Shown: positions 13,579-55,609, numbered from the stretch's first letter. The stretch: DNA of 64,000 bases from an uncultured delta proteobacterium (GCA_963796055.1 CAWCKH010000005.1:52779-116778), one strand, 5' to 3'. A program made the numbers and translations. The notes: generated by a model not told the origin, from the sequence alone.

Positions 13579-14640
13579 TCAGTCGTGGTCCGCTCCACCG
13601 TGGTCGTCGTCCCGGCTGCCGTCGATGCGGATCTCCGAGATGGTGTACCGGGACACCTGCGCGCACCACTCTGAGTCCGGCGTCACGTACTCCTGGCTGA
13701 AGATGCGCAGGTCGAGGGCGAGGTTGGTCACCAGTAGATGCCGCCCGGCGAAGCGGATGCTCGCCGGGAAGAGGAGACCCACCGGCTCGCCATGACGGAC
13801 CGCGCCGCCGAAGTCACCCAGCTTGGCGATCAGCTTGCCCGCGGGATCGAGCACCACCACGTCGTCCGACTGGTTCTCGGCGACCCAGACGTTGTCGTGG
13901 TCGTCCACGAGCAGCCCGTCCGCTCCGTTGATCGCCTGGGCGAAGATGGCAGGAGAACCTCCGGGGTTACTGCCGACAACGGGAATCTTGAGAACCGTGT
14001 CGCTGCCGGTGTTGGCGACGAACATCGCACTCTCCGCCCGGTTGAAGCGGATCCCGTTGGCCCCGAAGGGGGGGACGCCCGTAGTGCGGAGCAGCGGGTC
14101 GTCGATCCAGGCGGTCGCCACGCCCCCGTTCGGAGGAGCCTTCCAGATGATCCCCTGCGCACTGTCCGAGATGTAGACGTTCCCGGCGTGGTCGAAGGTG
14201 ATGTCATTGAGCCCCGCGCCGCCCGGATGCGGCAAGGCTGGCAGGGTGATGAAGGGCTGCGCAGCGCCGGTTCTCGCATCGACAGCGAGCACCTGACCGG
14301 CGCCGAAGTCGTTCACCAGCAGGACACCGCTGTGTGGATGGAAGCGCAGCCCGAGGAGATGCGGAGTCGAGGGCGTCACCGGGATCTGGCGGACCAGCCG
14401 ACCGTGCTCGTCGAACACCGTGAGCTGTCCCTGGCCGGTGGCGGAGCCGGTGGCGGTGAAGCCGAAGCCGGTCACGTAGACGTGGCCGTGCGGACCGACA
14501 TCGAGCCCCTCGGGGCCGGAGGAGCCGGGCGGCATTACCGCAAAGGTGCGGACCCGCCCGCGATCCCAGGCGTGCGCCGACCCGCCGAGCAAGAGAAAAC
14601 CGAGCGACAGCACCGAGACCGCACGACGCGTTCCGCGCAT
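13579..14640 (-). CDS. secreted SMP-30/gluconolactonase/LRE-like six-bladed beta-propeller protein
   Basis: 353 aa from ATG 14640 (GGGAGGA RBS). Signal peptide MRGTRRAVSVLSLGFLLLGGSAHA. Repeated blade motifs (GPEGLDVGPHGHVYV, NDITFDHAGNVYISD, GANGIRFN, GADGLLVDDHDNVWVAE). Confidence 0.8.
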   Translation of the reverse strand: MRGTRRAVSVLSLGFLLLGGSAHAWDRGRVRTFAVMPPGSSGPEGLDVGPHGHVYVTGFGFTATGSATGQGQLTVFDEHGRLVRQIPVTPSTPHLLGLRFHPHSGVLLVNDFGAGQVLAVDARTGAAQPFITLPALPHPGGAGLNDITFDHAGNVYISDSAQGIIWKAPPNGGVATAWIDDPLLRTTGVPPFGANGIRFNRAESAMFVANTGSDTVLKIPVVGSNPGGSPAIFAQAINGADGLLVDDHDNVWVAENQSDDVVVLDPAGKLIAKLGDFGGAVRHGEPVGLLFPASIRFAGRHLLVTNLALDLRIFSQEYVTPDSEWCAQVSRYTISEIRIDGSRDDDHGGADHD

Positions 14641-15041
14641 GACGTCCTCCCGTCGGATCCGGGACCGGAGGGGCCCCGGCGCGCTGGAAGGAGACGCCCT
14701 GGTGCTGCAGGCCGCAACTGCCGCGGACTGCAGCCGCAGGCGCATGCCAAGTAGATGTCAGACCGACGCGGAGGGGAAGCTCGCTCCGGCACCGGAGCAC
14801 CACGAGTCGGCCCGGGCCGCAGCGCAGATGCTGGGGAGCAAGAGCTGGATCGAGGAGACCAGCCGCGGCGGAGAAGGTCCGACGCAGGCTCGAGGCGGCG
14901 ACACGCCCCGGAGCCTCGACGACTTCGGGTGGCGCCAGCACCGGCGGTGAGCGGGGCCGGCTGCGGCGGCCTCAGGAGTTCGCGCGCTGCTCCGATGACG
15001 CTGCCCAACCGGGTTCGCATCTGACGAGCGCTGCCAAAAGT

Positions 15042-33185: not shown

Positions 33186-33530
33186 CGTCCGCAGCGGGAA
33201 CGCGAACACACCGCGACTCTTCGAAGGCTGAACTGTGCCCTCACGGGAGCCACAGTCCAGCCTGACACTGGAGTAGGGCCGCCCTGTCCTAGTTTCAGCG
33301 GCTTCGTCCGAGCTGGTCGCGTCCTCGTGTCGCGGTTTCCGACCCGGTCGAGCACACCAGACGCACACACGCCGCCAACCCCCCGGACGACCGCGGTCAT
33401 CCGAGCTTCCTCCTGAGCCCCCCGGCGCACAGGTGAGCTGCCCTAGACGGCGTCCACGTGACTGGACGGCGCGTGCAGCGCGGACCCGTCGTCGTCTCCT
33501 GGCGCAGCGGCTGCACGAGGGCCTGCGGCA

Positions 33531-34985
33531 GTGGCGCGGCGGGCGGAGACGGCGGGGGACAGGGAGCGCGAGACCGTTCTCGGGCAAGAGGGGAAGCGGG
33601 CGCTCGGGGCAGTCGAGCATCGCCGCGACGTCGAGGGCACCGTCCTGCACCAGGCCGTCCGAGGCCATCTCGCCAGCTTTCTCGCCGGGTCGGCCGACCG
33701 GGGCGGTCTTCCGCGCTTCGTCGAGCGCGACTTTGCCCGGAACCTCGCCTGCGGAGTGCCGGCGTACGGCTTCGCCCGGCTGGCCTGCGCCGGATGCCGA
33801 GCCGAAGTGCTGGTCCCCTTCTCCTGCAAGTCACGCGGAGTGTGCCCCTCCTGCAACGCCCGCCGGGCGCACGACACCGCCATCCATCTGGTGGAGCGCG
33901 TGCTTCCCCGGGCGCCGTACCGCCAGTGGACGCTCTCGCTGCCCATGCCGCTGCGCTTCTCTCTGGCCAGGGATTCCCGGCTCCTCTCCGAGGTGCTGGG
34001 CCTCTTCGTCCGGGCGCTCTTCGCCTTCCAGCGGCGGACGGCCCGGCGGCTCGGGGTGTCCCGGCCACTCACCGGCGCTGTGGCCTTCGTCCAGCGCTTC
34101 GGCTCGGCGCTCCAGCTGACGCCCCACTTCCACCTCCTCGTCCCCGAGGCCGTCTTCGAGGAGGTGCACGAGGCGGAGCTGCGCCTGCACCCCTTGCCTC
34201 GGCCCACCGACGCCGAGGTGGAGACGCTCGCCGTCACCGTGGCCCGGCGCACCCTCGCGCTGCGGCGTGCGCGCGGCATCCTCGAGGAGGAGGCCGTCCC
34301 GGACGCAGCACTCGATGTCCTGCAGCTCGAAGGCATCCAGGTGCCGCGGAGCGGGCCGCGTCCTCCCGCCCGCCGGCCGGGCCGCCGCTGCGCCTTCGTC
34401 GAGGGCTTCTCCCTCCACGCCGACACCTGGCTTCACGAAAACGACGTCACGGGCCTCGAGCGGCTCTGCAACTACGGCGCCCGCGGGCCCCTGTCGCTCG
34501 AGCGGCTGTCGGCCTTGCCCGACGGACGGCTCGCCTACCGGATGAAGCGGCCCTCTCCGGCAGGACAGACGCACCTCCTGCTGTCTCCGCTGGCCTTCCT
34601 CCGCCGGGTGGCCGCGCTCGTCCCACCCCCCAGGGCCAACCTCGTGCGTTACTTCGGCGTCTTCGCCCCCAACGCCAGGGTGCGGCCCCGCGTCGTGCCT
34701 GCGCCTCCTTCCCCTGCGCCGCTGGCCGAGGCAGCTTCCTGCCCCGTCACGCCGGAGCCTCTCCGCCCCCGGCCGCCTCGCCGCCCCATCCCCTGGGCCG
34801 AGCTCCTCCGGCGGACCTTCCAGTCCGACGTCCTCACCTGCCCGCGCTGCGGCGGCACGCGCCGCGTGGTGGCCGTCGTTCTCCGTTCCGCCACCGCCCG
34901 GGCCATCCTGGAGCATCTGCGGCTTCCCTCCAGGCCCCTCCCCCTCGCTCCAGCCGCCTCTCCGCCCCAGCTCGGCCTCTGGTGA
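33531..34985 (+). CDS. IS91-family (HUH / Y2 rolling-circle) transposase
   Basis: 484 aa, GTG start. Zinc-binding N-terminus (CAGCRAEVLVPFSCKSRGVCPSCNARR), HUH motif in TPHFHLLVP, C-terminal LVRYFGVFAPN tyrosine motif, and a terminal CPRCGG zinc ribbon. Confidence 0.8.
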   Translation: MARRAETAGDRERETVLGQEGKRALGAVEHRRDVEGTVLHQAVRGHLASFLAGSADRGGLPRFVERDFARNLACGVPAYGFARLACAGCRAEVLVPFSCKSRGVCPSCNARRAHDTAIHLVERVLPRAPYRQWTLSLPMPLRFSLARDSRLLSEVLGLFVRALFAFQRRTARRLGVSRPLTGAVAFVQRFGSALQLTPHFHLLVPEAVFEEVHEAELRLHPLPRPTDAEVETLAVTVARRTLALRRARGILEEEAVPDAALDVLQLEGIQVPRSGPRPPARRPGRRCAFVEGFSLHADTWLHENDVTGLERLCNYGARGPLSLERLSALPDGRLAYRMKRPSPAGQTHLLLSPLAFLRRVAALVPPPRANLVRYFGVFAPNARVRPRVVPAPPSPAPLAEAASCPVTPEPLRPRPPRRPIPWAELLRRTFQSDVLTCPRCGGTRRVVAVVLRSATARAILEHLRLPSRPLPLAPAASPPQLGLW

Positions 34986-35268
34986 GTGCCGTCCGAGCTT
35001 CGAGACCGCCCTACCCTGACGACGGGCCACGTACTGCTCTACCCCCAGCAGCGGTGAGCACTCCTTCCGAGCGCCTCCTGCCTTCGTCGTCCTCCCCGTC
35101 GCCGGCCGGACGACCCGGTCCGTACCTGGCTTCCGCCGCGAAAAACCCGTTTGTTCTTCCTTGGATCATATGCGACTCCCTCGTGTCGCGTTTGCTTAGT
35201 AGATTAGGACACCTAATTCATGTTTTAGGAGCAAATAAGTTGCGTGTTGCCAAAGAGGGAGGGTCGCC

Positions 35269-35748
35269 ATGAGCCTGAATTCGAGAGCGTTGTTGCTGGT
35301 GCTTTGTTTACTGGGGGCAACGGAAGTCGTCGGTCAGGAAGCCGTCACCGCACTTGACCGTACTCTTTCGAAGACCCATATGCGACAGGACACCACTTCC
35401 GTCGCGATCGCCGACGCGCCAGTGCAAGCATTCGCTCCGACGACGATTCAGTGTGGAAAGCAGAGTTGCACGGTGAGGGTTGAGGTCTCCAGCCAGTTTT
35501 TCAACGTCACTTCCGGGAACGCCGTTAGACTGCATGTCAAAGCGGATGGCGCCCCATTCCCAGTCACAGGATTTGAAATCGATGGCGGAATCAACAGACC
35601 GGTGGCGCATCTCACCACGGTGTCATCACTGAAGAGCGATCTCAGTCCAGGACCACACACCATTTCGGTGGACTTTGATATGCGAACGCCGGGTGGCAAA
35701 GCGGAGGCGTCCATTCGTATATTGACCATTCAAGTGTTTACACCTTGA
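35269..35748 (+). CDS. orphan secreted protein encoded on the low-GC insert
   Basis: 159 aa. AGAGGGAGGG RBS, signal peptide MSLNSRALLLVLCLLGATEVVGQ, beta-strand-rich body with no motif I recognise. GC is about 50% by hand count, against more than 70% in the flanks. Confidence 0.7.
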   Translation: MSLNSRALLLVLCLLGATEVVGQEAVTALDRTLSKTHMRQDTTSVAIADAPVQAFAPTTIQCGKQSCTVRVEVSSQFFNVTSGNAVRLHVKADGAPFPVTGFEIDGGINRPVAHLTTVSSLKSDLSPGPHTISVDFDMRTPGGKAEASIRILTIQVFTP

Positions 35749-35760
35749 ACAATCCAGAAA

Positions 35761-35805
35761 TCGCAGTGCTGCCACCTCGCGCACGGTCAGCAGCGCGGGG
35801 GACAT
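35761..35805 (-). pseudogene. 3'-truncated second copy of the excisionase-like gene
   Basis: The minus strand reads ATG TCC CCC GCG CTG CTG ACC GTG CGC GAG GTG GCA GCA CTG CG (MSPALLTVREVAAL). This matches the left-end gene (CTG CTG ACG GTG AGG GAG GTG GCA). Homology stops exactly where the low-GC DNA begins. Confidence 0.5.
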
Positions 35806-35933
35806 TAGGGGGCCACGGCGAGCGTTCCTAGCCCGTCCAGCGGGTCCATCCGGTCGATGGTCCGTGCCGCCGTTCTGAAGAATAGCAACAGGTTGGACGC
35901 TGTGAGCAGGCTCTGGATGATAATTAGAATCAA

Positions 35934-35976
35934 CTGTCACGCCGGAGGTCACGGGTTCAAGTCCCGTACTCCTCGC
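35934..35976 (+). repeat. direct repeat, right copy (orphan 3' fragment of tRNA-Asp)
   Basis: Perfect 43-nt copy of 32859-32901. The upstream sequence (gataattagaatcaa) has no tRNA 5' half. Confidence 0.95.
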
Positions 35977-35980
35977 AACG

Positions 35981-36277
35981 TCACTCAGCGGGAATCTCGG
36001 GAGATGCGCCGCCAGTCGCTGCAGGTGCTGACCGGCGCGCTGGCCACTCCCGGTACGCGTTGGGGTCCTCGGTGAGCACGCCGGTCTGGTCGTCACCGTA
36101 GAAGAAACGCTCGACCACCTTCCCGTCCTGCCACTCCGTCCGCACGCAGGCGAGCCAATAACTAGGGTCCGTCGATCCGTACTCATCCAGGACCACCTCC
36201 AGCGACTGCCTGGCGGCGTCGAGCGCGGTTGCCCAGCCGGAGACGGTGCAGGTCCAGTTGGCAGGGTGCTCGGACAC
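35981..36277 (-). CDS. hypothetical protein
   Basis: 98-aa ORF (MSEHPANWTCTVSGWATALDAARQSLEVVLDEY...) immediately outside the right repeat. Codon usage is high-GC. No recognisable motif. Confidence 0.35.
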   Translation of the reverse strand: MSEHPANWTCTVSGWATALDAARQSLEVVLDEYGSTDPSYWLACVRTEWQDGKVVERFFYGDDQTGVLTEDPNAYREWPARRSAPAATGGASPEIPAE

Positions 36278-38619: not shown

Positions 38620-39567
38620 TCAACGACTGCCCTGCAGCGCTCGAGCGCTCACCGCTGCATCGCGCGCCGCCGAGGAACCTGGCTCGCCCGCATCGAGCGG
38701 CTCGCGCCAGGCGATGTCCAGACCCTTGCGCCGGCTCACGAGCCAGAGCGCGGCGGTCGCAAGCCCGATGATCGCGATCGCCAGCCCGCCGCCTTCGATG
38801 CTCGGCGCCTGCCCCGTCCAGGCGACCGGTCCGCGCTGGACCACGCTCACCAGCTGGTGAGCCTTCCCCGCGCCGAGGTCCACGATGCCGAGCGTGTCCT
38901 GCATCCAGTCCCACGCCGCGTGCCAGCCGATGGCCCAGCCGAGCGATCCCGTGACGAAGCGGGCCAGGATCAGCATCAGGGTCGCGATTGCTGCCGAGAC
39001 GACGAACCCGACGTCCACGCGCTGCGCCGGATTCGCCAGATGGAGCAGGCCGAAGACGACCCCAGTGCCGAGCGTCGCGGCCCACAGCGGGAGCCGCTCC
39101 CCCAGGTCTTGCAGGAAGACGCCGCGCAGGAGGAGCTCCTCCATCACCCCGATGCCCATCGCGGCAAGGAGCGCACCGACCACGGCCGAGAGCTTCCATG
39201 GCTCGCCGACCCAGGTCGGCTCGACCCAGCCGAGTTGCCACTCCACGCAGAACAGCGCACCCAGCATCAGCACGCCGACGGCGAATCCCAGGACCAGCGC
39301 GCGTGCCAACCGCCGGGACCAGGTGAGCCCCACCCATGACCAGGGCCGGTGATCCATCCGACTCCTGAGCATCCGGGTTCCAAGGATGAACGCGCCCCCA
39401 CCGACGAGGGTGACCACAAGTCCCAGAACCCATCTGGGGACGATCGCCCGGAGCGCATGACCGAGGATGCTGGCGGCCGCGCCGCAGACGGCGTACAGGA
39501 ACAGGTACGAGACGAGCCTCCATCCGAGCCGGAGGCGCCCTTCACCGTCGATCAGCCAGCGACGCAT
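38620..39567 (-). CDS. CPBP-family intramembrane glutamic endopeptidase (CAAX/Abi-type)
   Basis: 315 aa, multi-span. Catalytic motifs EELLLRG and FGLLH, plus a downstream H (WHAAWD). Confidence 0.85.
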   Translation of the reverse strand: MRRWLIDGEGRLRLGWRLVSYLFLYAVCGAAASILGHALRAIVPRWVLGLVVTLVGGGAFILGTRMLRSRMDHRPWSWVGLTWSRRLARALVLGFAVGVLMLGALFCVEWQLGWVEPTWVGEPWKLSAVVGALLAAMGIGVMEELLLRGVFLQDLGERLPLWAATLGTGVVFGLLHLANPAQRVDVGFVVSAAIATLMLILARFVTGSLGWAIGWHAAWDWMQDTLGIVDLGAGKAHQLVSVVQRGPVAWTGQAPSIEGGGLAIAIIGLATAALWLVSRRKGLDIAWREPLDAGEPGSSAARDAAVSARALQGSR

Positions 39568-39757
39568 CCAGAGCCTCAGGGAGGAGATGGTGCGCCTGCG
39601 TACGCACCTTCGCCGCTCCCATTTCCCGGTCCCGCATCGGTTCGTGCCGAGTTGCAGCGGGCGGTCGGCGCCGTGCCGCGGGCGTCTGCCCCCGCAAATC
39701 TTGCGTCAGCGCGCGCGTGCTCGCAGCGAGCCTCGCGCGGTGCGACGATGACCGGCC

Positions 39758-44342: not shown

Positions 44343-44711
44343 TCAGAAGCTCAGCGAGGCCGCCCCGGCCAGCAGTTGCTCGTGGATGACGCTCGAGCCG
44401 GCGATCTCCGTGCCCTCGATGAGGTCTTGCTGGGTGTACCCGCGCGACTTCACGCAGGGCGTGCAGGCCACGAGGCGGCCGCCCCTGCGGAGGAAGTCCT
44501 TGACCAGCGCGGCGAGGGGATCGAGCGGCGGGACGTGGGTCGTGTCGATCGCCCGGCGGCGCGCGAGGTCCACCGCCGAGCTGGTCAGAAACACGGTCAC
44601 CTTCCTGAATCCGGTGGTCATCCCGCCGTTGGCGATGGTGAAGCCGACCGAGGACAGCTCGTGATCGGTTCCCTTCGTCATCAACACCACCAGCTCACGT
44701 TGCTCGGACAT
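44343..44711 (-). CDS. DsrE/DsrF-like sulfur-relay family protein
   Basis: 122 aa. [11 protein letters not shown] ... [10 protein letters not shown] ... [13 protein letters not shown] fits the DsrE-fold pattern with a conserved Cys. It is 25 nt upstream of the LuxR-family gene (GAGGAG RBS). Confidence 0.65.
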
Positions 44712-44824
44712 GGGGCACCCCTGAAGTTTGGATGTTGCAGGGGGGCAGCGTGTCGGCGGTGAGGTCCGGGCACATGGGGAGGATTCCCCATCTTTCGAGG
44801 CGCCACGGGCCCGTCAGCCCCGGC

Positions 44825-45343
44825 TCAGGCCGCGGCGCCGGCCATGGCCGGCGGCCCCCCGCGTCCGAGGAAGCGGCGGGCGGCGAGAGCGATGGGCAGC
44901 CCCACCAGCAGGGCGTGACCGATGACGCCGTTCAGGACCAGCGGGAGCGGGGGCATCGAGGGGGGGATGCGCGACAGAGGGATGACCCCGAAGCCCATCA
45001 CCACCCACACCACGACCCCGAAGGCCAGACCCCACCCCACCGCGTCGCGCCGGAGCCGGGGGAGCCGCTCGCTGGCCAGCACGAACACCGCCGCGGCGGT
45101 GAAGGCGATGAGGAAGTGAATCGCCAGTCCGAACAGCGCGGTCCCTCCCCCTCCGGCGAAGGCCGCCTGCCCCATCAGCCCGCTAGCGACGAACTGGTAG
45201 ATGGCCACCGGCTTCATCCCGAACGCCAGGCCGTAGGCGACGATCGCGTTCACTCCATCCAGCACCGCCACCGCCAGCCCTCCGGCGACGATGGCCTGCA
45301 CACGCCCACTGCTTCGCACGTTGTTCTCCATGAAGACCTCCAC
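44825..45343 (-). CDS. hypothetical integral membrane protein
   Basis: 172 aa with about 4 hydrophobic helices. An alternative start is four codons downstream (MENNV). No motif recognised. Confidence 0.55.
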   Translation of the reverse strand: MEVFMENNVRSSGRVQAIVAGGLAVAVLDGVNAIVAYGLAFGMKPVAIYQFVASGLMGQAAFAGGGGTALFGLAIHFLIAFTAAAVFVLASERLPRLRRDAVGWGLAFGVVVWVVMGFGVIPLSRIPPSMPPLPLVLNGVIGHALLVGLPIALAARRFLGRGGPPAMAGAAA

Positions 45344-45415
45344 GACGGGTTTGCCACCTCAGATGCCTCCGGGGCATCCTCGGCGACGACAAATGACTGT
45401 TCTTGGAGGAGAACG

Positions 45416-49413: not shown

Positions 49414-49803
49414 GTGAGCGGGAGGGAGACGCCAGTCCGGGGCAGTGTGGTTGTCGCCGACGACGACCGCGAGCTCCGCGAGGGGCTGGTCGACGTGCTC
49501 GAGCACGAGGGCTTTCGCGTGCTCGAGGCGGCGGACGGCCCGGCAGCGGTGGAAGCGGTGCTCGGCGCGCCTCGCCCCTGCCTGATGCTGCTCGACCTGG
49601 TCCTGCCCCGCTACTCCGGGCTCGAGGTTCTCGCCCGTCTGGAGCGGGAGAGGCCCGAGCGGGTGCGTGTCTTCCTGATGACCGGCCAGACGCCGGCCCC
49701 GGAGCTCCCACCGGGTTCCATCGTGGCGGACGTGCTCATCAAGCCCTTCACCCTCGACGCGCTGCTGGTGCGCATCCGGAAATTCCTCGCCGAGGCGGGC
49801 TGA
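49414..49803 (+). CDS. single-domain response regulator (CheY-like)
   Basis: 129 aa, GTG start. Canonical DD pocket (VVADDD), acceptor Asp (MLLDLVLP), Thr (LMTG) and Lys (IKPF). Confidence 0.85.
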   Translation: MSGRETPVRGSVVVADDDRELREGLVDVLEHEGFRVLEAADGPAAVEAVLGAPRPCLMLLDLVLPRYSGLEVLARLERERPERVRVFLMTGQTPAPELPPGSIVADVLIKPFTLDALLVRIRKFLAEAG

Positions 49804-49822: not shown

Positions 49823-52795
49823 CTAGCCCCGGCCCCGCGGGCGGCGCCGCCACGCACCCCAGGCGAGCAGCAGCGCCAGCGCCGGGAGCAGCGCCGCGCT
49901 CCCGCTCGTGCTCCGGCAGGCGCAGCCCCCGCTCACCTCCCCTCCTTGCGTGAGCGGGGCCGAGGCCTGGGCGGTCTTCATCAGCACCGGGGTGGCGCGC
50001 CCGGTCGCCTCCCAGATGGCGTGGAGGGCGTCGCCCGTGCCATCGGTCAGGTTCGCCGCGGCGAGCGCCTCCACGTACTCGCGGGTGGTCGGCTGGTAGA
50101 AGAGCCGCGCCTCCACCGTGGTGCTCCCCGCGGCGAGCGCGGAGGCCGGGAAGGTGACCCGGTACGTCCAGTCCACCGCGCCCATCGCACCACCGTCCGC
50201 GTCGCGGAGGAAGCTGATTCCCACCGGTGCGGTGTCCTGGTCGGGGCGGAAACCCAGTGGCTCGATGCGGGTGTCCTTGAGGATGGTGTCGTGCAGCGCC
50301 AGGTGGTCCAGCCCACCGTCGCTGCGCGCGTGCACCGCCTCGAACACGGCCAGCTGCGAGTCGGAGAGCAGCAGGCCCGCGTCGCCGTCGTAGGCGCCGC
50401 TCACCACCTGGCCGTCGACCCGCAGCTCGAGGAAGACCCGCCGGCCGTCGGCATAGCCAGTGGGCAGCTTGTGCCCGGTCCGGTTGAAGACCCGGACCTT
50501 CACCTCCACCTCGGTCTCCACCGGGATGGCGCCACCGGGAAGGGTGATCTGCACCTCCGCGGCGCCGCCGAGGTTGTCCAGCGCCGCCGCGCGGTTCGCG
50601 GCGAAGGCGGCGTCCAGACCCGCGAGCTGGCCGGAAGCGGCGGCAGCACGGACCGCATCGAGCCCCCACACGTTGCCGCCGACGAAGGCGTGGCGGCTCG
50701 GCGTCTGCCGGGCAGGGCCGTCCTTGGCCACCGGGAGGCTCTGCGTCTCGCGCAGCATGTGACAGGACTGGCAAGTCTTCGGGGAGGCGCCGCTGGAGTA
50801 CGCGGACTGGAGCCACTCGGAGTAGGTGGTGTCGAGCGGGAAGGCCCGCTGCGTCCCGGCGCGTTTCAGGATTGGGTTGCGCACCTCGTGGCACTGGCCG
50901 CAGAGGCTGCTCTGGCTGACCGCCGGATCCTGCACTCCGGTGTGCGCCGGGCTGTCCACGTTGGGGTAGGGCCCGAAGACGGTGAAGCTGGGCTCGAAGG
51001 TGAGCTGGGCGTTGCCGATCACCCCGGCATCGGTGCGGGTGCGGTGGCAGGCCTCGCAGCTGACGCCGGCGCGGTCCACCGCGTCGAGCGCGCTCCCGTT
51101 CGGAGGTAGCCCGTGGCCCTGGACGTAGGAGGTGGGCGAGTGGCAACGCAGGCACCACTGCCCGATGCCCAGCACGTCCTGGTTCGCGACGCTGAGCGCG
51201 GCCTGGTAGAGCGGGTCGCGGACCGCGTTGGCCATCATCGTCGCCGCCCAGCTGTCCCAGGGCATGTACGGGGTGCCGGCGTCGACCGACGCGCTGGCGT
51301 GGCAGAGCTGGCAGGTGTCCGGCCCCTGGAACGGCGCGCCGCCGGCGAGACCTCCCGGCGGGGTGCCGCCGCCGAAGTCGATGGGTCCGGCGTCGAGCGG
51401 TGGCCCGGCGTCGGGCCGCGGTCCGGCGTCGGGCGCTCCCGCATCCGGACGGCCCGCGTCGGGCGCTCCCGCATCCGGACGGCCCGCGTCGGGCCTACCG
51501 GCGTCCGGAACTCCTGCGTCCACGCCCGGACGGGGGGAGACGAGGAGGATGCTGCCCTCGACGCGTGAGACGTAGAGGTTTCCGTCCGGACCGACGAGGA
51601 AGCGCGTCACGGTGCCGAAGCCGGTGCCGAAGTCAGCCCGCGGGCTGGCCACGAACCCGTCCCGGTTCGCGTTGGGGGTCAGGGTCCAGACGTTGCCGTT
51701 GGCGTTGTCGCCGAAGAAGTAGCGCCCCCGGTACGGCGCGGGGAAGCTGGCGCTGTCCACGAAGACGCCGCCGGTGATGCTCTGGCAGTTCCCGTCGTTG
51801 TTCCCCAGGGCGCCAGCGTGCTCGCAGAAGTACGCCGGGTCCACGCAGTCGGCGCCGACGCCGTTGGGGCCGAGCGGGTCGCATCGGGTGACCGGATGGC
51901 CAAACGCGCCCTCGCGGTAGGGCCAGCCGTAGTGCTGGCCCTTGCGGACCAGGTCGATCTCCTCGTAGCTGACCTCGCCGACGTCGCCGACCCAGAGGAA
52001 GCCGGTCTGTGGGTCGAAGGCGAAGCGGAACGGGTTGCGAAACCCCCAGGCCCAGATCTCCGTCCTCGCGCCGGCGATGAGGGTGCCTGCGTCCGGGCCG
52101 CTGCCGCAGCTTCCGTTGCACGCCGGCACCGTGGTTCCCGGGGCGGCGAGCGGGTTGTCGTTGGGGATGGTGCCGTCGAGGTTGATGCGGAGCACCTTCC
52201 CGTTGGCCGTGGTGAGGCAGGTCCCGATGTAGTTGCCGATGTTTCCGCCGGGAGGGAGGCCGGTGTTGCAGCCGGTGTCGCCGACGCCGACGTAGAGCTT
52301 GCCGTCGGGCCCGATGGCCAGCGCCCCGCCATCGTGGTTGGCCGGGCCCTGCAGGTTCTGCAGCAGCACCGTCACGGCCATCTGGGCCGTGCTGCAGGAG
52401 CCGGTGCACTGGAGCGTGTTGTCGGGGTTGAGCCGGACCTTGAGCACCCGGTGCTTGTTCGCGGTGGTGGGCCCGTCCGAGGCGTAGAAGTACAGGAAGG
52501 TGTTGGAGGCGAACTGGGGATCGACCTCCACCCCCAGCAGACCCTTCTCGCTGTCGAAGTCCACGCTGAAGCTGCCCGCGGTCACCACGCTGCCGTCGGT
52601 GCGGCGGACCTTCACCGCGCCGGTCTTCTCGGTCATCACCACCCGGCCGTCGGGGAGAAAACGGAAATCGGTGATCTGCCCCTGCCCCGAGACGTACGTC
52701 CCCACCTGGAAGGTGCTCGCCGGGCCGCCGGTGGTGAGCGTCTGGGCGGTTGCGGGGACCCAGACGAGGGTGGCCGCCAGGAGGAGCCTGCGCAT
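49823..52795 (-). CDS. secreted fusion protein: glucose/sorbosone-dehydrogenase-like beta-propeller, (PDAGx)n linker, pentahaem c-type cytochrome region, MYXO-CTERM tail
   Basis: 990 aa from ATG 52795. Signal peptide MRRLLLAATLVWVPATAQT. GSDH-type propeller motifs (FLPDGRVVMTEKTGAVKV, NHDGGALAIGPDGKLYVGVGD, GFRNPFRFAFDP). Five CxxCH motifs (CQLCH, CLRCH, CEACH, CGQCH, CQSCH). C-terminus GGCACRSTSGSAALLPALALLLAWGAWRRRPRGRG. Confidence 0.85.
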   Translation of the reverse strand: MRRLLLAATLVWVPATAQTLTTGGPASTFQVGTYVSGQGQITDFRFLPDGRVVMTEKTGAVKVRRTDGSVVTAGSFSVDFDSEKGLLGVEVDPQFASNTFLYFYASDGPTTANKHRVLKVRLNPDNTLQCTGSCSTAQMAVTVLLQNLQGPANHDGGALAIGPDGKLYVGVGDTGCNTGLPPGGNIGNYIGTCLTTANGKVLRINLDGTIPNDNPLAAPGTTVPACNGSCGSGPDAGTLIAGARTEIWAWGFRNPFRFAFDPQTGFLWVGDVGEVSYEEIDLVRKGQHYGWPYREGAFGHPVTRCDPLGPNGVGADCVDPAYFCEHAGALGNNDGNCQSITGGVFVDSASFPAPYRGRYFFGDNANGNVWTLTPNANRDGFVASPRADFGTGFGTVTRFLVGPDGNLYVSRVEGSILLVSPRPGVDAGVPDAGRPDAGRPDAGAPDAGRPDAGAPDAGPRPDAGPPLDAGPIDFGGGTPPGGLAGGAPFQGPDTCQLCHASASVDAGTPYMPWDSWAATMMANAVRDPLYQAALSVANQDVLGIGQWCLRCHSPTSYVQGHGLPPNGSALDAVDRAGVSCEACHRTRTDAGVIGNAQLTFEPSFTVFGPYPNVDSPAHTGVQDPAVSQSSLCGQCHEVRNPILKRAGTQRAFPLDTTYSEWLQSAYSSGASPKTCQSCHMLRETQSLPVAKDGPARQTPSRHAFVGGNVWGLDAVRAAAASGQLAGLDAAFAANRAAALDNLGGAAEVQITLPGGAIPVETEVEVKVRVFNRTGHKLPTGYADGRRVFLELRVDGQVVSGAYDGDAGLLLSDSQLAVFEAVHARSDGGLDHLALHDTILKDTRIEPLGFRPDQDTAPVGISFLRDADGGAMGAVDWTYRVTFPASALAAGSTTVEARLFYQPTTREYVEALAAANLTDGTGDALHAIWEATGRATPVLMKTAQASAPLTQGGEVSGGCACRSTSGSAALLPALALLLAWGAWRRRPRGRG
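51427..51486. repeat. intragenic perfect 30-nt tandem duplication within a longer 15-nt periodic tract
   Basis: cgtcgggcgctcccgcatccggacggcccg occurs twice in tandem, flanked by degenerate 15-nt units from about 51390 to 51520. It encodes PDAGRPDAGAPDAGRPDAGAPDAG. Confidence 0.9.
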
Positions 52796-52928: not shown

Positions 52929-53225
52929 TCAGACGCCGGCGCGGCGGAGCTCCGGGGCGAGCCGGCCCGACAGTGCGAGCGCCCACATCTTCCAGTCCGC
53001 AGCCAGCGACCAGAGCGGGTAGCGGAAGGTGGCGGCGAAGCCGTAGCCCGCCACCAGGGCACCGACCAGCAACAGGGGCCGACCGCTCACCACCGTCCAG
53101 ACCAGCAGCAGCAGCGAGAGCGTGGTCCCCACCAGGTGGAGCATCCGCGTGCCGGGCTGGCGGTGCTCGCGCAGATAGTAGGGCCAGAACTCGGCGAAGC
53201 TGCCGATGCGCGGCCCGGCGTTCAT
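52929..53225 (-). CDS. DUF962 (Mpo1-like) membrane protein
   Basis: 98 aa ([34 protein letters not shown]...). The start overlaps the peroxiredoxin stop (ATGA). Confidence 0.65.
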
Positions 53226-53734
53226 GCCCGCTGCAGCTCCTTCAGCATGGTCTCGGCGTCGCTCACCTCGAACTTCCCGGGCGCCTCGACGTGGAGCGAC
53301 TTCACCATCCCGTCGTCGAGCAGCATCGAGTAGCGCTGCGAGCGGACGCCCATGCCCTTCGAGGTGAGGTCCTGGTCCAGCCCCAGCGCCCGGCTCCAAA
53401 AGGCGCTCCCGTCGGCCAGCATGCGGATCTTCCCCCCGGTCTTCTGCTCCCGTCCCCAGGCGCCCATGACGAAGGCGTCGTTCACCGAGACGCACCAGAT
53501 CTCGTCCACGCCGCGGCCCTTCAGCGCGGCGGCCTGGGCGAGATAGCCGGGGACGTGCTTCGCCGAGCAGGTGGGGGTGAACGCCCCGGGGAGCCCGAAC
53601 ACCACGATCCGCTTGCCGGCGACCAGCTTCGAGACCTGGAACGTATTGGGGCCGAGCGCGCAGCCCGGCGTCTCCTGCTCGATGAACTCGCTCAGCGTCC
53701 CGTCGGGGACGCGGTGTCCGACCTGGATGGGCAT
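53222..53734 (-). CDS. peroxiredoxin, Prx5/PrxD type
   Basis: 170 aa. [14 protein letters not shown] contains the peroxidatic Cys. Prx5-like length and layout. Confidence 0.88.
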
Positions 53735-53770: not shown

Positions 53771-55609
53771 CTAGACGTGCCCACGCGGGGCAGCGGTCGA
53801 CCAGGAGCGGAGCGCCCGGAGCTGCGCCGTCTTCTTCGACTGGTGCTCTTCCATTCGCCGGAGGATGTCGTCGAGGACGGAGACGGCGTCCAGGATGTGC
53901 GGGCCCTTGTTGAGCATGACGCACTCGGCGCGCTCACCCATCGCCGCGTCGGTCACCTCGGCCCGGCTGGGCACACCGTTCTTGGCCAGCCCCTCGAGCA
54001 CCTGGGTGGCCCAGATCGCCGGCACGTGCGCGGCCTCGCTGATCCACAAGAGCTCCTCCTGCACCTCGGCCAGCCGCTGGTAGCCGCACTCCACCGCGAG
54101 GTCGCCGCGGGCGATCATCACCCCCGCCCGCTCGTGCTCCATCGCCGCCCAGAGCAGGGCCGGCATCGCGGCAAAGGCGTGGGCGGTCTCGATCTTGAGG
54201 ATCAGTCCCAGGTGCGAGGCCGAGAGCCGGTCCAGCTCGGCGCGGAGGGCATGGATGTCCTCGGGGCGCTGGACGAAGGACATGCCCACCAGGTCCGCCA
54301 GCCTCACCACGGTCTGCAGATCCCGGCGGTCGTCGTCGGTGAGCGCCGGGAGCTGGAGCGCGGTGTCGGGGACGTTGATGCCCTTCTCGCTGGCCAGCTT
54401 CCCGGAGGGCCGCGGACCACGGACGATGCGGAGCTCGAGCCGGTCCGGGTGCACCTCCACGGCCTCGGCATGGAACTTCCCGTCATCGAGCATCACCCGG
54501 TCACCGGGCCGGACCCGGGTGAAGAGCCTGGGCTCGGTGCACCCCACCCGCCCGGGTTCCACCACCCGCCCGGTGCTGTCGCGCAGCTCGGCCCGGCCCG
54601 GCGCCAGCGAGCGGGTGAGCACCAGCCGTTCGCCGGGGACGAGGGTGATGGGCAGCTCGGGCTCGGGCAGCGCGAGCGGACAGGCACCGGGGTCCACCTC
54701 CGAGGTCTGGAACCGCGTCTCGGGCACGATGAAGGCCTTCTGCTCTGCCTCTCCCCGGAGCACGTCACCGAGCCGCTCGACGATGCGCAGGGTGCGGCGA
54801 AGCCCGCGGGCATCGCGGAACTGGAGCTCGGCGCCGGGGCTCAGCCCGCGGGTCCAGTCCGCCGGGAACTGGAGCTGCGGTCCGGTGGCCGGCGGGTACG
54901 TCCCCGCCGGGACGATCCACACGGTGGTGGGCACGAGTAGCTTGCCGCGCATGTCGCGCCGGAGCTTCCAGCTGACCACCGGCGGCCCAGGGCTGAGCGG
55001 GCCGGTGCGGATCTTCGGCCCCCCGAGGTCCATCAGGATGCGGCACGGATGTCCGCTGGCCTTCTCCGCGGCCCGCACGTGGGCGGCGATGCGGGTCCAG
55101 ACCTCCGGCCCATCGTGGGCACAGTTGATCCGCAGGATGCCCATCCCTCGGTTCACCAGCGCCCGGACGGCGCTGGGATCCTCGGCCAGGCTCGCGTCGG
55201 CGGTGACCATGATCCGCACTGCCCGTCCCTCGGGGGCCGGTCCGAGCAACGCCTCGGCATTTCGGGCCAGGGCGCTGCGGCCCTCGTCGAAGTCCGGTCC
55301 GCGGAGCGTCTCGACTGCGGCCGCCCCCTGCCCGTCGAGCCCCCGCAGCGCCCGGCGGACTGCCCGCAGCGTGGCCTCCACATGGCCTTCGGCCCTCCCC
55401 AGAGAGGAGAGCCCGAGCTCGGCCAGCGTCTGCTGGAGACGCCGGAGGTCGTGGCTCCGGAGCGCGAGGTAGTGCCGGAGGTTCACCGCCCCCGCCCGGT
55501 GTGGAGAGGCGAGAGCCTGTAGCTCGGTGGACGAGGGCGTCGCCCGCTCCACCTCTCCGAGCAGCGAGTCGAGCTGGGACAGCGTCGCTGAGGCGGATGA
55601 CGGGCTCAT
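53771..55609 (-). CDS. pyruvate-kinase-family protein lacking the C-terminal regulatory domain, with about 110-aa N-terminal extension
   Basis: 612 aa from ATG 55609, which forms an ATGA overlap with the mgtA stop. PK barrel motifs [37 protein letters not shown] and SRAEVTDAA. The protein ends shortly after the barrel. Confidence 0.8.

Follow-up and report, generated by a model that had tools for sequence, protein, structure and literature searches.

The window, the 64,000-nucleotide stretch of DNA analysed here, comes from an uncultured myxobacterium and encodes on its minus strand a 990-residue exported protein in which a PQQ-type sugar dehydrogenase, a pentahaem cytochrome and a surface anchor form a single chain, and this protein is real and conserved (Table 1). 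The gene product is probably a cell-envelope quinohaemoprotein whose display on the surface is likely, and I put a probability of about 0.58 on the reading that PQQ oxidises a sugar at the cell surface and passes the electrons to the tethered cytochrome, which takes them away. An earlier note on this DNA had claimed a single exported fusion of 990 aa composed, in order, of a signal peptide, a GSDH-like propeller, a linker, five CxxCH motifs and a MYXO-CTERM-type tail. The open reading frame agrees with a single chain, and Pfam, motifs, structure models and orthologues agree with the order. The author of the note did not recognise the architecture as a characterised enzyme, and a comparison with literature and databases likewise found no characterised enzyme that combines GSDH, pentahaem and MYXO-CTERM parts.

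Table 1. Features of the fusion gene and its convergent neighbour; positions are those of the whole window and residues those of the 990-aa product.
Feature	Residues	Position	Strand	Basis or remark
Whole fusion gene	1-990	49823..52795	-	990 codons + stop; ORF and translation, full-length orthologues
Signal peptide (MRRLLLAATLVWVPATAQ)	1-18	52742..52795	-	Sequence reading; N-terminal pLDDT low
Six-bladed GSDH-type beta-propeller	~20-427	51515..52738	-	Pfam, PDB sequence matches, Foldseek
Flexible (PDAGx)n linker	428-470	51386..51514	-	Tandem repeat; low pLDDT
Helical pentahaem cap	471-744	50564..51385	-	CxxCH motifs, AF2, Foldseek, NF040886
Five CxxCH motifs		51299-51313, 51140-51154, 51044-51058, 50888-50902, 50759-50773	-	In the cap
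Ig-like beta-sandwich stem	745-954	49934..50563	-	Beta-strands 746-949 in models
Stem motif N771-RTGHKLPTGYADGR-R786	771-786	50438-50485	-	Holds His775 and Tyr781
MYXO-CTERM-type sorting tail	955-990	49826..49933	-	TIGR03901, AF2 helix, orthologue tails
Single-domain response regulator		49414-49803	+	Convergent, 19 bp from the fusion-gene stop codon

The mechanical open reading frame extends upstream to a GTG at 53062. The ATG at 52795 was chosen over it, and the orthologues (961-1003 aa) begin at the same place. The N-terminus that follows from this start, MRRLLLAATLVWVPATAQ, reads as a Sec-type signal peptide, with no lipobox Cys within residues 1-18.

The fusion is kept in 28 clusters, in which full-length orthologues share 40-90% identity. 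The low-complexity linker of the earlier note is there, and its DNA is a tandem repeat with a period of 15/30 nt. A fusion junction that coincides with such a repeat raises the suspicion that a frameshift or assembly error in GC-rich DNA joined two genes, the more so as other genomes hold both genes in split form. The chance of this is vanishingly small. In all 28 clusters, which come from independent NCBI, JGI, ENA and Logan assemblies, an uninterrupted frame crosses a linker that varies in length and sequence and retains its composition, which excludes the merger. Furthermore, folded domains replace the linker in more distant fusions, and the split pairs have a sorting tail on the first gene and a signal peptide on the second, both of which are absent at the window junction. 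The inserts of the distant fusions are PKD, DUF11, F5/8-type-C (discoidin) or CBM96 domains, and the carbohydrate-binding ones point to a sugar or polysaccharide as substrate. In the full-length model the linker appears disordered (pLDDT <50 for residues 428-465) and the pTM is 0.63, as against 0.93 for the cytochrome module alone. This fits a tethered, mobile cytochrome.

The window gene fuses two components, a propeller and a pentahaem cytochrome, of a conserved module that other Myxococcota and Bacteroidota encode as two adjacent, separately surface-targeted genes. Such neighbouring genes occur in other Myxococcota. The GSDH gene precedes the cytochrome gene in loci L081, L082, L084 and L085, the order is reversed in L017, and in the Bacteroidota loci L024 and L029 GSDH and cytochrome alike carry a T9SS sorting domain. 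This Rosetta-stone evidence strengthens the idea, already put forward in the note, of a self-contained extracytoplasmic oxidoreductase. The note had also pointed out the convergent response regulator (Table 1). Among the orthologous loci it recurs only in L010, with a weak 33% match in L005, and a functional link to it is unsupported because it is not syntenically conserved.

The propeller matches the Pfam GSDH model (PF07995), the check that had been proposed for it, over residues 44-411 with 140 bits (cut-off 25; E 1.4e-40). Its assignment therefore stands, although its size had been overestimated, as the folded domain spans about 410 aa and not ~480 aa. It resembles PQQ-dependent aldose/glucose dehydrogenases, with sGDH, 3A9G and 2ISM as sequence matches in the PDB, and Foldseek aligns it with 2ISM, 7CDY, 3A9G and 2G8S (TMt 0.81-0.87, E about 5e-21). 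The family PF07995 is common to the soluble enzymes A. calcoaceticus sGDH (1C9U), E. coli Asd/YliI (2G8S) and those of P. aerophilum (3A9G) and T. thermophilus (2ISM), which are about 22% identical to the window propeller and have the same catalytic His and Arg-Asn pair. In fold it is close to the Asd-type enzymes, at the TMt just given, and less so to sGDH (about 0.6). All of these are single-domain, soluble periplasmic proteins with separate acceptors, whereas the window protein is a fusion. His154 aligns with sGDH His144 and R253/N254 with R228/N229, which I take, from sGDH structures, to be the catalytic base and contacts to PQQ/substrate, respectively. Among 51 relatives R253 and N254 never vary, H154 is conserved to at least 90%, and Glu83 is the other residue named in the propeller beside these three. 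The sGDH alignments reach to about residue 305, short of the sGDH PQQ-carboxylate ligands K377, R406 and R408. The substrate is not transferable from sGDH because the score with TIGR03606 (non_repeat_PQQ, the sGDH subfamily) lies far below its cut-off (82.3 against 434.55 bits). No PQQ biosynthesis genes were seen in the scanned parts of the window, an observation that carries little weight.

The five CxxCH motifs counted in the note are found at residues 495, 548, 580, 632 and 675 and are invariant (5/5) in 119 homologues; by my own estimate, made for a few per cent of Cys and His, the chance expectation in 990 aa is ~0.01. The 'uncharacterised' region of about 300 aa described after them is real but not separate, as it is the Ig-like stem of the cytochrome. 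Haem region and stem make up a single module, in which a pentahaem cap sits on an Ig-like stem as in the fold of T. tepidum c552, and AF2 models the two as a single unit (pLDDT 94.7, pTM 0.93). The structure of this low-potential pentahaem cytochrome (5ZE8) is the only significant PDB neighbour (E <= 0.001) among the matches listed for the module (Foldseek E 5.5e-14, TMt 0.64 over 385 target residues), and it has the same two-domain build and H-x-x-P-T-G motif. However, identity is 18%, c552 has a His at the Met521 site and no Tyr after PTG, and it is neither fused to nor paired with a dehydrogenase, unlike the window cytochrome. Also present are the motifs of the PHC fold family (T. tepidum c552, ExtKL/MccSep), a concept proposed for cable bacteria and Geobacter (PMC11976967), namely the stem loop N-x-x-x-H-x-x-P-x-G and W-x-x-x-x-(H/M)-A after haem 1.

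The stem loop, NRTGHKLPTG, aligns with NHAGHSIPDG of MccSep and NLQPHAMPTG of c552. N771, G774 and H775 are invariant in 43-44 aligned distant relatives, P778 is kept in 42/44, and residue 781 is Tyr in 117 of the 119 close homologues and Phe in the other 2. Predicted distal ligands in the cap are Met521, His618 and His702, which with His775 of the stem makes four candidates for five haems, a hint of a catalytic or open haem. Residue 521 is Met in the window clade and His in MccSep (His74), c552 and 26 distant relatives, and Met521 and Tyr/Phe781 covary across phyla. Across the 119 homologues, Cys is conserved only in the CxxCH motifs and in the tail. The conserved non-ligand residues (Y781, R785, D841, R843, E660, W661) exceed the needs of a pure wire, which counts against the main reading.

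The tail consists of GGCAC (Cys958, Cys960), a transmembrane helix at residues 969-983 (AF2) and RRRPRGRG. A Cys motif, a transmembrane helix and an Arg-rich end at the very C-terminus of an exported myxobacterial protein define MYXO-CTERM (PMC11980579), and all are found here, as the note had proposed; the TIGR03901 score of 17.4 bits (E 0.0044) falls narrowly short of the cut-off of 20. This sub-threshold score weighs against the main reading. Of 119 homologues, 96% retain C960 and 86% C958, tails of the form GCGC...hydrophobic...RRRR end all fusion orthologues and many stand-alone Myxococcota halves, and several orthologues carry the JGI name MYXO-CTERM protein. The nearest genomes are Myxococcaceae MAGs. 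A CPBP protease encoded in the window (38623-39705) fits none of the myxosortase models. The MYXO-CTERM route would be analogous to the placement of Shewanella MtrC and OmcA, which are decahaem outer-surface lipoproteins. The window protein is related to them neither in fold nor by family: scores with the MtrC/OmcA models lie below their cut-offs (PF22113, 25.7 bits against 30; TIGR03507, 12.8 against 209), and the PDB matches listed for its cytochrome include no MtrC-type structure. Moreover, MtrC and OmcA take electrons from the cell interior through a porin-cytochrome conduit, and no genes for such a conduit flank the window gene.

A surface quinohaemoprotein of this kind would be exported by Sec, after which haem would be attached at the five CxxCH sites in the periplasm and the propeller would bind PQQ plus a metal ion. 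The step between export and catalysis is suggested by analogy with TraA (PMC11980579). The GSDH propeller would then oxidise an aldose or other carbohydrate at C1 via PQQ, with His154, to judge by residue conservation, as the putative general base. Reduced PQQ would be re-oxidised by the pentahaem module, a built-in acceptor and wire held by a flexible tether of 40 residues. Electrons would probably enter at the haem that has Met521 as ligand, likely of higher potential and matched by a His-ligated haem in anaerobe relatives, and would exit via exposed haems towards an external acceptor. With three or four bis-His haems, the module may lie too low in potential for easy electron uptake from PQQH2. 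The surface location also leaves no explanation for the final electron acceptor, which weighs against the main reading.

The main rival, possible if doubtful, is that the pentahaem module is itself catalytic and the propeller its dedicated electron donor. Such a two-site enzyme may couple sugar oxidation to the reduction of a small oxidant at haem 2, perhaps H2O2, O2, nitrite/NO or sulfur or selenium species. The precedent is MccSep (G. sulfurreducens ExtKL, GSU2937/2936; PDB 9WT8), a relative of the same architecture, with a five-CxxCH helical cap followed by an Ig-like stem, that acts as a polysulfide/selenite reductase with haem 2, Cys239 and the stem residue Sec325 as active site (PMC13510729). 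The two proteins match by phmmer (E 8e-4), and the window protein matches the NCBIfam ExtKL model NF040886 (E 5.7e-12) with 41.8-44.9 bits, below the family cut-off of 250. In both, a loop N-x-x-G-H-x-(I/L)-P-x-G reaches the haem-2 pocket. Alignment of the MccSep loop NHAGHSIPDGUPTPNR places Tyr781 at Sec325, and Met521 stands at His74. The haem-2 ligand Cys239 becomes Leu654 and Cys240 becomes Asp655, an alignment anchored on the following T-(S/T)-Y. With Sec325 replaced by Tyr, Cys239 by Leu and one distal His by Met, an identification of the window protein as MccSep is rejected; MccSep is also a stand-alone periplasmic tetramer of an anaerobe without propeller or sorting tail, whereas the window protein has both.

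A catalytic module nonetheless draws support from the Sec-bearing loop motif, which is kept and has Tyr in place of Sec in 98% of the 119 close homologues, from the shortage of conserved distal ligands and from the covariation of residues 521 and 781, which points to a tuned site. The combination of a His/Met haem with one that has no obvious sixth ligand also recalls bacterial dihaem peroxidases, and close relatives carry a peroxiredoxin gene upstream on the same strand. Yet both essential residues of MccSep are missing, the haem-2 distal pocket holding Leu654 and Tyr781, and distant relatives have Y, F, L, A or S at 781, so that this residue is not universally required for catalysis. The peroxiredoxin synteny may reflect mere shared ancestry because only close relatives show it, T. 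tepidum c552, the closest structural relative, has no assigned function (PMC11976967), and the sequence names no substrate. It is quite improbable, on the other hand, that the propeller is no PQQ redox enzyme but serves in binding or hydrolysis, like HHIP or the lactonase-like six-bladed propellers, with the cytochrome fed from elsewhere and the propeller only targeting it to a carbohydrate or a surface. This would agree with a GSDH fold family that includes the non-enzymatic HHIP (matching the profile at E about 1e-12), with the TIGR03606 result and with the pairing of the same cytochrome family with FG-GAP/ASPIC-UnbV and PQQ_2/BamB-like propellers. However, the His and Arg-Asn pair that contact PQQ/substrate are conserved and nearly invariant, and in fold the propeller is matched best by PQQ aldose sugar dehydrogenases throughout, with HHIP at a TMt of 0.52-0.61.

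A wider proposal, rather unlikely as a whole, is that GSDH and the Met521/Tyr781 pentahaem cytochrome form a conserved surface redox machine by which electrons taken from extracellular carbohydrate are spent outside the cell. If true, its hosts would be largely aerobic soil and water bacteria, and the machine would be fused in some Myxococcota and split elsewhere, sorted by MYXO-CTERM or, in Bacteroidota, T9SS, and sometimes joined by an FG-GAP/ASPIC propeller. Either a Tyr-capped catalytic haem, of a kind previously undescribed, would replace the MccSep Sec/Cys site and reduce an oxidant, or electrons would pass to LPMOs, humics, metal oxides or similar partners outside the cell.

The quinohaemoprotein that I favour has counterparts. 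CcPDH of Coprinopsis cinerea (AA12 + AA8 + CBM1) combines a PQQ six-bladed domain, a cytochrome b and CBM1 (PMC4332668, PMC6881789, PMC5960967), and is thus an extracellular six-bladed PQQ propeller tethered to an electron-taking cytochrome, as proposed here. Carbohydrate-binding modules also occur in some relatives of the window protein, and its propeller has fold neighbours in the AA12 structures 6JT5 and 6I1T. CcPDH is fungal, with one b-type haem in an N-terminal cytochrome, whereas the window protein has five c-type haems and an Ig-like stem at its C-terminal side; its propeller belongs to the sGDH/Asd-type GSDH branch and not to AA12, and it is predicted to be lipid-anchored whereas CcPDH is secreted free. 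Type II ADH (ADH-IIG, 1YIQ) likewise unites in one chain a PQQ propeller and a C-terminal acceptor, a c-type cytochrome whose haem is His/Met-ligated, but its propeller is eight-bladed and unrelated, its haem single, and the enzyme soluble and periplasmic. Quinohaemoprotein ADHs have been cited as an analogy in a preprint that also noted PQQ six-bladed propellers with a fused or neighbouring cytochrome (bioRxiv 10.64898/2026.07.10.737718). Because haem-bearing six-bladed PQQ dehydrogenases have thus been noted already, the novelty of the window protein lies in the kind of cytochrome and its surface anchoring, not in the principle.

The minus-strand ORF that ends at 49823 extends mechanically to a GTG at 53062, and the ATG at 52795 opens a 990-aa product whose N-terminus, MRRLLLAATLVWVPATAQ, is a typical Sec signal peptide. 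This start agrees with both the lengths (961-1003 aa) and the N-termini of the orthologues, so the single exported polypeptide of 990 aa described in an earlier note on this DNA is real. In the full-length AlphaFold2 model (pLDDT 88, pTM 0.63), residues 20-427 and residues 470-954 each fold as a rigid body, with a disordered stretch (428-465, pLDDT <50) between them and a further disordered segment and a C-terminal helix (969-983) after them. The linker between the bodies is a (PDAGx)n sequence, encoded by a 15/30-nt tandem repeat, and its length and sequence vary between orthologues without the frame ever being broken. The protein ends in GGCAC, a hydrophobic helix and RRRPRGRG. The MYXO-CTERM anchor that had been read into this tail stands as far as its tripartite build is concerned, which is that described in PMC11980579 and recurs as a GCGC/helix/RRRR tail in every fusion orthologue, but the TIGR03901 model gives only 17.4 bits against a cut-off of 20.

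The Pfam GSDH family (PF07995) matches residues 44-411 with an E-value of 1.4e-40, which bears out the proposed propeller. The closest folds to the N-terminal body are PQQ-dependent aldose sugar dehydrogenases (2ISM, 7CDY, 3A9G, 3DAS and 2G8S; TM-scores 0.79-0.87); soluble PQQ glucose dehydrogenase (sGDH) comes next at about 0.6, with HHIP and the fungal AA12 enzymes further off. In HMMER alignments His154 is the counterpart of the sGDH catalytic base His144, Arg253-Asn254 of Arg228-Asn229, and Glu83 of Gln76, and all of these propeller positions are invariant or nearly so among 51 relatives. The score with the sGDH-specific NCBIfam model falls far short of the cut-off (82 vs 435 bits), so the domain belongs to the GSDH family, with no substrate assigned, and is not an sGDH. 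The metal-site loop at residues 270-279 (about 51959-51988) reads GDVGEVSYEE, its sGDH counterpart being QGPNSDDE, and D271 and E274 are invariant extra carboxylates beside the Ca-binding Gly-Pro position. Because six-bladed PQQ enzymes that bind lanthanide have been reported (10.64898/2026.07.10.737718), the metal preference of the propeller may be worth testing.

The five CxxCH motifs counted in the earlier note lie at residues 495, 548, 580, 632 and 675; by my own estimate chance would supply about 0.01 in a protein of this size, and none of the five varies across 119 homologues. When it is modelled by itself with 90 stand-alone homologues, the C-terminal body forms one confident unit (pLDDT 94.7, pTM 0.93) in which a helical region bearing the haem motifs is followed by a beta-sandwich; pTM falls from this value to that of the full-length protein in models that contain neither haems nor PQQ. 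The sole significant fold match of this body is the Thermochromatium tepidum pentahaem cytochrome c552 (5ZE8; E 5.5e-14, TM-score 0.64), in a library running to April 2026 that does not hold 9WT8, the structure of Geobacter ExtKL, or MccSep. The sequence of the body does match MccSep, a multihaem selenoprotein (phmmer E 8e-4), and the NCBIfam ExtKL model matches with an E-value of 5.7e-12, yet at 45 vs 250 bits. When the cytochrome half was run against PDB sequences as a profile, less was learned than from the single sequence: the top match, 6I5B, spans just a segment rich in CxxCH, with 5ZE8 and 9WT8 at E ~0.01.

MccSep has been likened to a mushroom in which an Ig-like stem bears an alpha-helical cap with five haems. 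Its active site for the reduction of polysulfide and selenite is haem 2, which is ligated by His122 and Cys239 and reached from the stem by Sec325 (PMC13510729). A 'PHC family' has been proposed to unite c552, ExtKL, Gsu2801 and cytochromes of cable bacteria (PMC11976967). From the match to this MccSep/c552-type fold, the roughly 300 aa that had been set apart as uncharacterised are, in the model, the beta-sandwich stem of the pentahaem module and not a separate region. Membership in MccSep/ExtKL itself is ruled out, since Sec and Cys239 are both replaced and the model score stays under its cut-off, and a relation to MtrC/OmcA is ruled out by sub-threshold scores and by the absence of any MtrC-type structure among the fold matches listed. 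By their defining tests the fusion protein belongs to the GSDH family and to the broader pentahaem-plus-Ig-stem fold, and to neither MccSep nor MtrC/OmcA.

The stem loop NRTGHKLPTGYADGRR aligns with NHAGHSIPDGUPTPNR of MccSep and NLQPHAMPTG-APFRN of c552, in a register that is valid since counting MccSep residues reproduces the published numbering of His122, Cys239 and Cys240. Where MccSep has Sec325 the fusion protein has Tyr781, where it has Cys239 there is Leu654, and its His74 (EWEQSIHA; QWKGSMHA in c552) gives way to Met521 (SWAATMMA). Outside the CxxCH motifs, the 119 close homologues keep M520/M521 and Y781 at 98% and H618, H702 and H775 at 100%, and N771, G774, P778, G780, R785, D841, R843, E660 and W661 are conserved too. 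An alignment of 69 segments covers 53 distant relatives, found in genomes of Acidobacteriota, Bacteroidota, Gammaproteobacteria and other groups, and in it H702, H775, N771 and G774 are again invariant. His (26) and Met (22) alternate at position 521, as is classic for an axial ligand of haem. At position 781 the same relatives have Y, F, L, A or S, and Met521 covaries with Tyr or Phe there. This covariation marks out a Met/Tyr branch, to which the fusion protein belongs; a literature search for a characterised member of this branch found none. Judging from these alignments, the five haems would share four protein-derived distal ligands (M521, H618, H702 and H775), and haem 2 would by homology be without a Cys and face Leu654 and Tyr781. 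At the Sec325-equivalent position, two Polyangiaceae/Myxococcales relatives, P0318 and P0362, have His in place of Tyr (PTGHIEGRR), and P0306 has Pro; with a Tyr/His swap beside a haem, the residue at this position might ligate iron.

Full-length fusions 40-90% identical to the protein form 28 clusters at 90% identity, drawn from NCBI, JGI, ENA and Logan assemblies. An exhaustive HMMER search over 1.84 billion representatives added more distant fusions, in which PKD, DUF11 or F5/8-type-C (discoidin) domains lengthen the linker or take its place. Some of these carry C-terminal CBM96, FlgD-Ig or MopE-like modules, and all retain the GHKLPTG(Y/H) motif; where they are named at all, it is just as 'PQQ-dependent sugar dehydrogenase' or 'hypothetical'. 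Each half also occurs as a stand-alone protein of 530-620 aa, many with a MYXO-CTERM tail of their own, and in 5/5 Myxococcota contigs examined the stand-alone cytochrome has a same-strand propeller gene directly before it. Furthermore, in two Bacteroidota MAGs, a Saprospiraceae (L024:5403-11201) and a Flavobacteriales (L029:7737-12875), GSDH, cytochrome and FG-GAP/ASPIC-UnbV propeller genes lie together, and all three products end in the T9SS Por_Secre_tail sorting domain. Such FG-GAP/ASPIC-UnbV (CRTAC1-like) propellers make up 9/87 same-strand neighbour ORFs at about 50 loci within L019-L080, a figure that is a count only, with these two MAGs as its confirmed cases. Candidates guessed from size (~620-650 aa) at L057, L058, L060, L066-L068 and L072 are mostly from Acidobacteriota. 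Propellers of several kinds seem to serve as partners of the cytochrome family. With MYXO-CTERM tails in Myxococcota and T9SS domains in Bacteroidota, the sorting signals indicate that two phyla send the same protein pair out of the periplasm by different surface-sorting systems. The fusion gene is a Rosetta-stone fusion of the GSDH and cytochrome pair.

The reading I favour, with a probability of roughly 0.58, is that the protein is a quinohaemoprotein with a lipid anchor, probably exposed at the surface. Its propeller would oxidise carbohydrate with PQQ, and the tethered pentahaem module would take electrons from PQQH2 and send them outward. Met521 would ligate an entry haem of higher potential, and myxosortase and a T2SS would bring the protein to the surface. 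It is supported by the homologies, the conserved catalytic residues, the flexibility of the tether, the conservation of both fusion and adjacency, the sorting signals and the carbohydrate-binding inserts of relatives; how the cofactors are loaded, what class of substrate is used, which way the electrons flow and what accepts them are what I infer. It is possible, if rather unlikely, that the cytochrome module is instead itself a MccSep-like reductase with a new Leu/Tyr distal pocket, in which case the enzyme would couple the oxidation of sugar to reducing some small oxidant. This is favoured by the apparent lack of a sixth ligand, by the number of residues that are conserved without being ligands and by the covariation of Met with Tyr, but both residues essential in MccSep are lost and position 781 is variable in distant relatives. 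A propeller that is not a redox enzyme at all is improbable beside the conserved catalytic residues. That the fusion is an artefact of assembly is scarcely credible: 28 independent clusters that keep the frame, and distant fusions with folded inserts, rule out a chimera or a frameshift in the linker repeat.

In type II alcohol dehydrogenases a cytochrome is already built into a PQQ dehydrogenase. The fungal pyranose dehydrogenase of Coprinopsis cinerea (CcPDH) is another known precedent (PMC4332668, PMC6881789). A survey of ~22,000 bacterial six-bladed PQQ propellers found mono-haem and dihaem cytochromes often encoded beside them, and makes no mention of multihaem partners (10.64898/2026.07.10.737718). 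My literature search for a fusion or pair of GSDH with a multihaem or pentahaem cytochrome found none described, only a general remark in the same 2026 preprint on six-bladed PQQ dehydrogenases with a fused haem domain or an adjacent cytochrome (10.64898/2026.07.10.737718). The architecture is solid, conserved and without prior experimental study, and the principle itself is not new. If the favoured reading is correct, the protein would be a bacterial counterpart, built from unrelated parts, of fungal extracellular quinohaemoproteins (CcPDH and, functionally, CDH), and a naturally occurring sugar dehydrogenase capable of direct electron transfer along a five-haem wire, a property that matters for biosensors and biofuel cells. 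For the large Met/Tyr branch of a family whose sole characterised member is MccSep, a Sec-dependent polysulfide reductase, it would also offer a first clue to function, and the recurrent pairing with propeller enzymes would tell what feeds electrons to that branch. Finally, multihaem cytochromes would then sit at the surface of predators and polymer degraders that live aerobically (Myxococcota, Bacteroidota), away from their classic setting in metal reducers. Because the two modules are fused, a single recombinant protein is enough to test all three implications directly.

The window has a G+C content of ~72%, and its nearest relatives are uncultured Myxococcaceae and Myxococcota MAGs, with protein identities of 67-87%. 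The peroxiredoxin, VOC, AraC and TonB-like neighbours of the fusion gene are syntenic in close relatives, as is the DNA of the 98-aa ORF in several loci, and the pyruvate-kinase-like gene is syntenic in L003 and L012. The 98-aa membrane protein gene, for whose product no family was found in NCBIfam, is separated from the fusion gene by 133 bp. The response regulator, present among orthologous loci in L010 only, with a weak 33% match in L005, is ruled out as a partner and is probably unrelated to the fusion gene. A promoter and terminator scan around the fusion gene gave nothing that exceeds shuffle expectation. I found no PQQ biosynthesis (pqq), ccm, T2SS or porin-cytochrome conduit genes in the ORFs scanned, which cover all but about 15 kb of the window.

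Features of the window and loci with related proteins
Feature	Position or locus	Strand	Remark
Pyruvate-kinase-like gene	53771-55609	-	Upstream, same strand as fusion gene
Prx5-type peroxiredoxin	53222-53734	-	Upstream, same strand
98-aa membrane protein	52929-53225	-	Start overlaps peroxiredoxin stop (ATGA)
Response regulator, single-domain	49414-49803	+	Convergent; 19 bp from fusion stop
VOC/glyoxalase, AraC regulator, FMN reductase, TonB-like protein			Downstream of fusion gene, convergent
CPBP protease, Rce1-like, intramembrane	38623-39705	-	Same superfamily as myxosortase
Distant fusions	P0254, P0308, P0317, P0318, P0332, P0354		From HMMER search
GSDH and cytochrome	L081		GSDH first, same strand; 67-bp gap
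GSDH and cytochrome	L084, L085		GSDH first, same strand; overlapping or abutting
GSDH and cytochrome (Sorangium)	L082		GSDH first, same strand
PQQ_2/BamB-like propeller and cytochrome	L083		Propeller first, same strand
Propeller and cytochrome	L017		Reverse gene order

The CPBP protease was rejected as a myxosortase: it matches no myxosortase model, and its best NCBIfam score is far below the cut-offs. The pyruvate-kinase-like protein (~612 aa) has its barrel in the C-terminal half only, after a long N-terminal region to which no domain is assigned. Genes of DsrE/DsrF-like and DUF1440 type adjoin at 44346-45358 (-). An IS91-family transposase (Y2_Tnp + Zn_Tnp_IS91) lies at 33462-34982 (+), where G+C dips to 0.66 (34001-36000), and this region is probably an insertion element. 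The product of 13582-14757 (-) is an SMP-30/gluconolactonase-like (SGL) beta-propeller with weak ScyE/ScyF-like matches; a lactonase could act on sugar-lactone products, but this gene lies 35 kb from the fusion gene.
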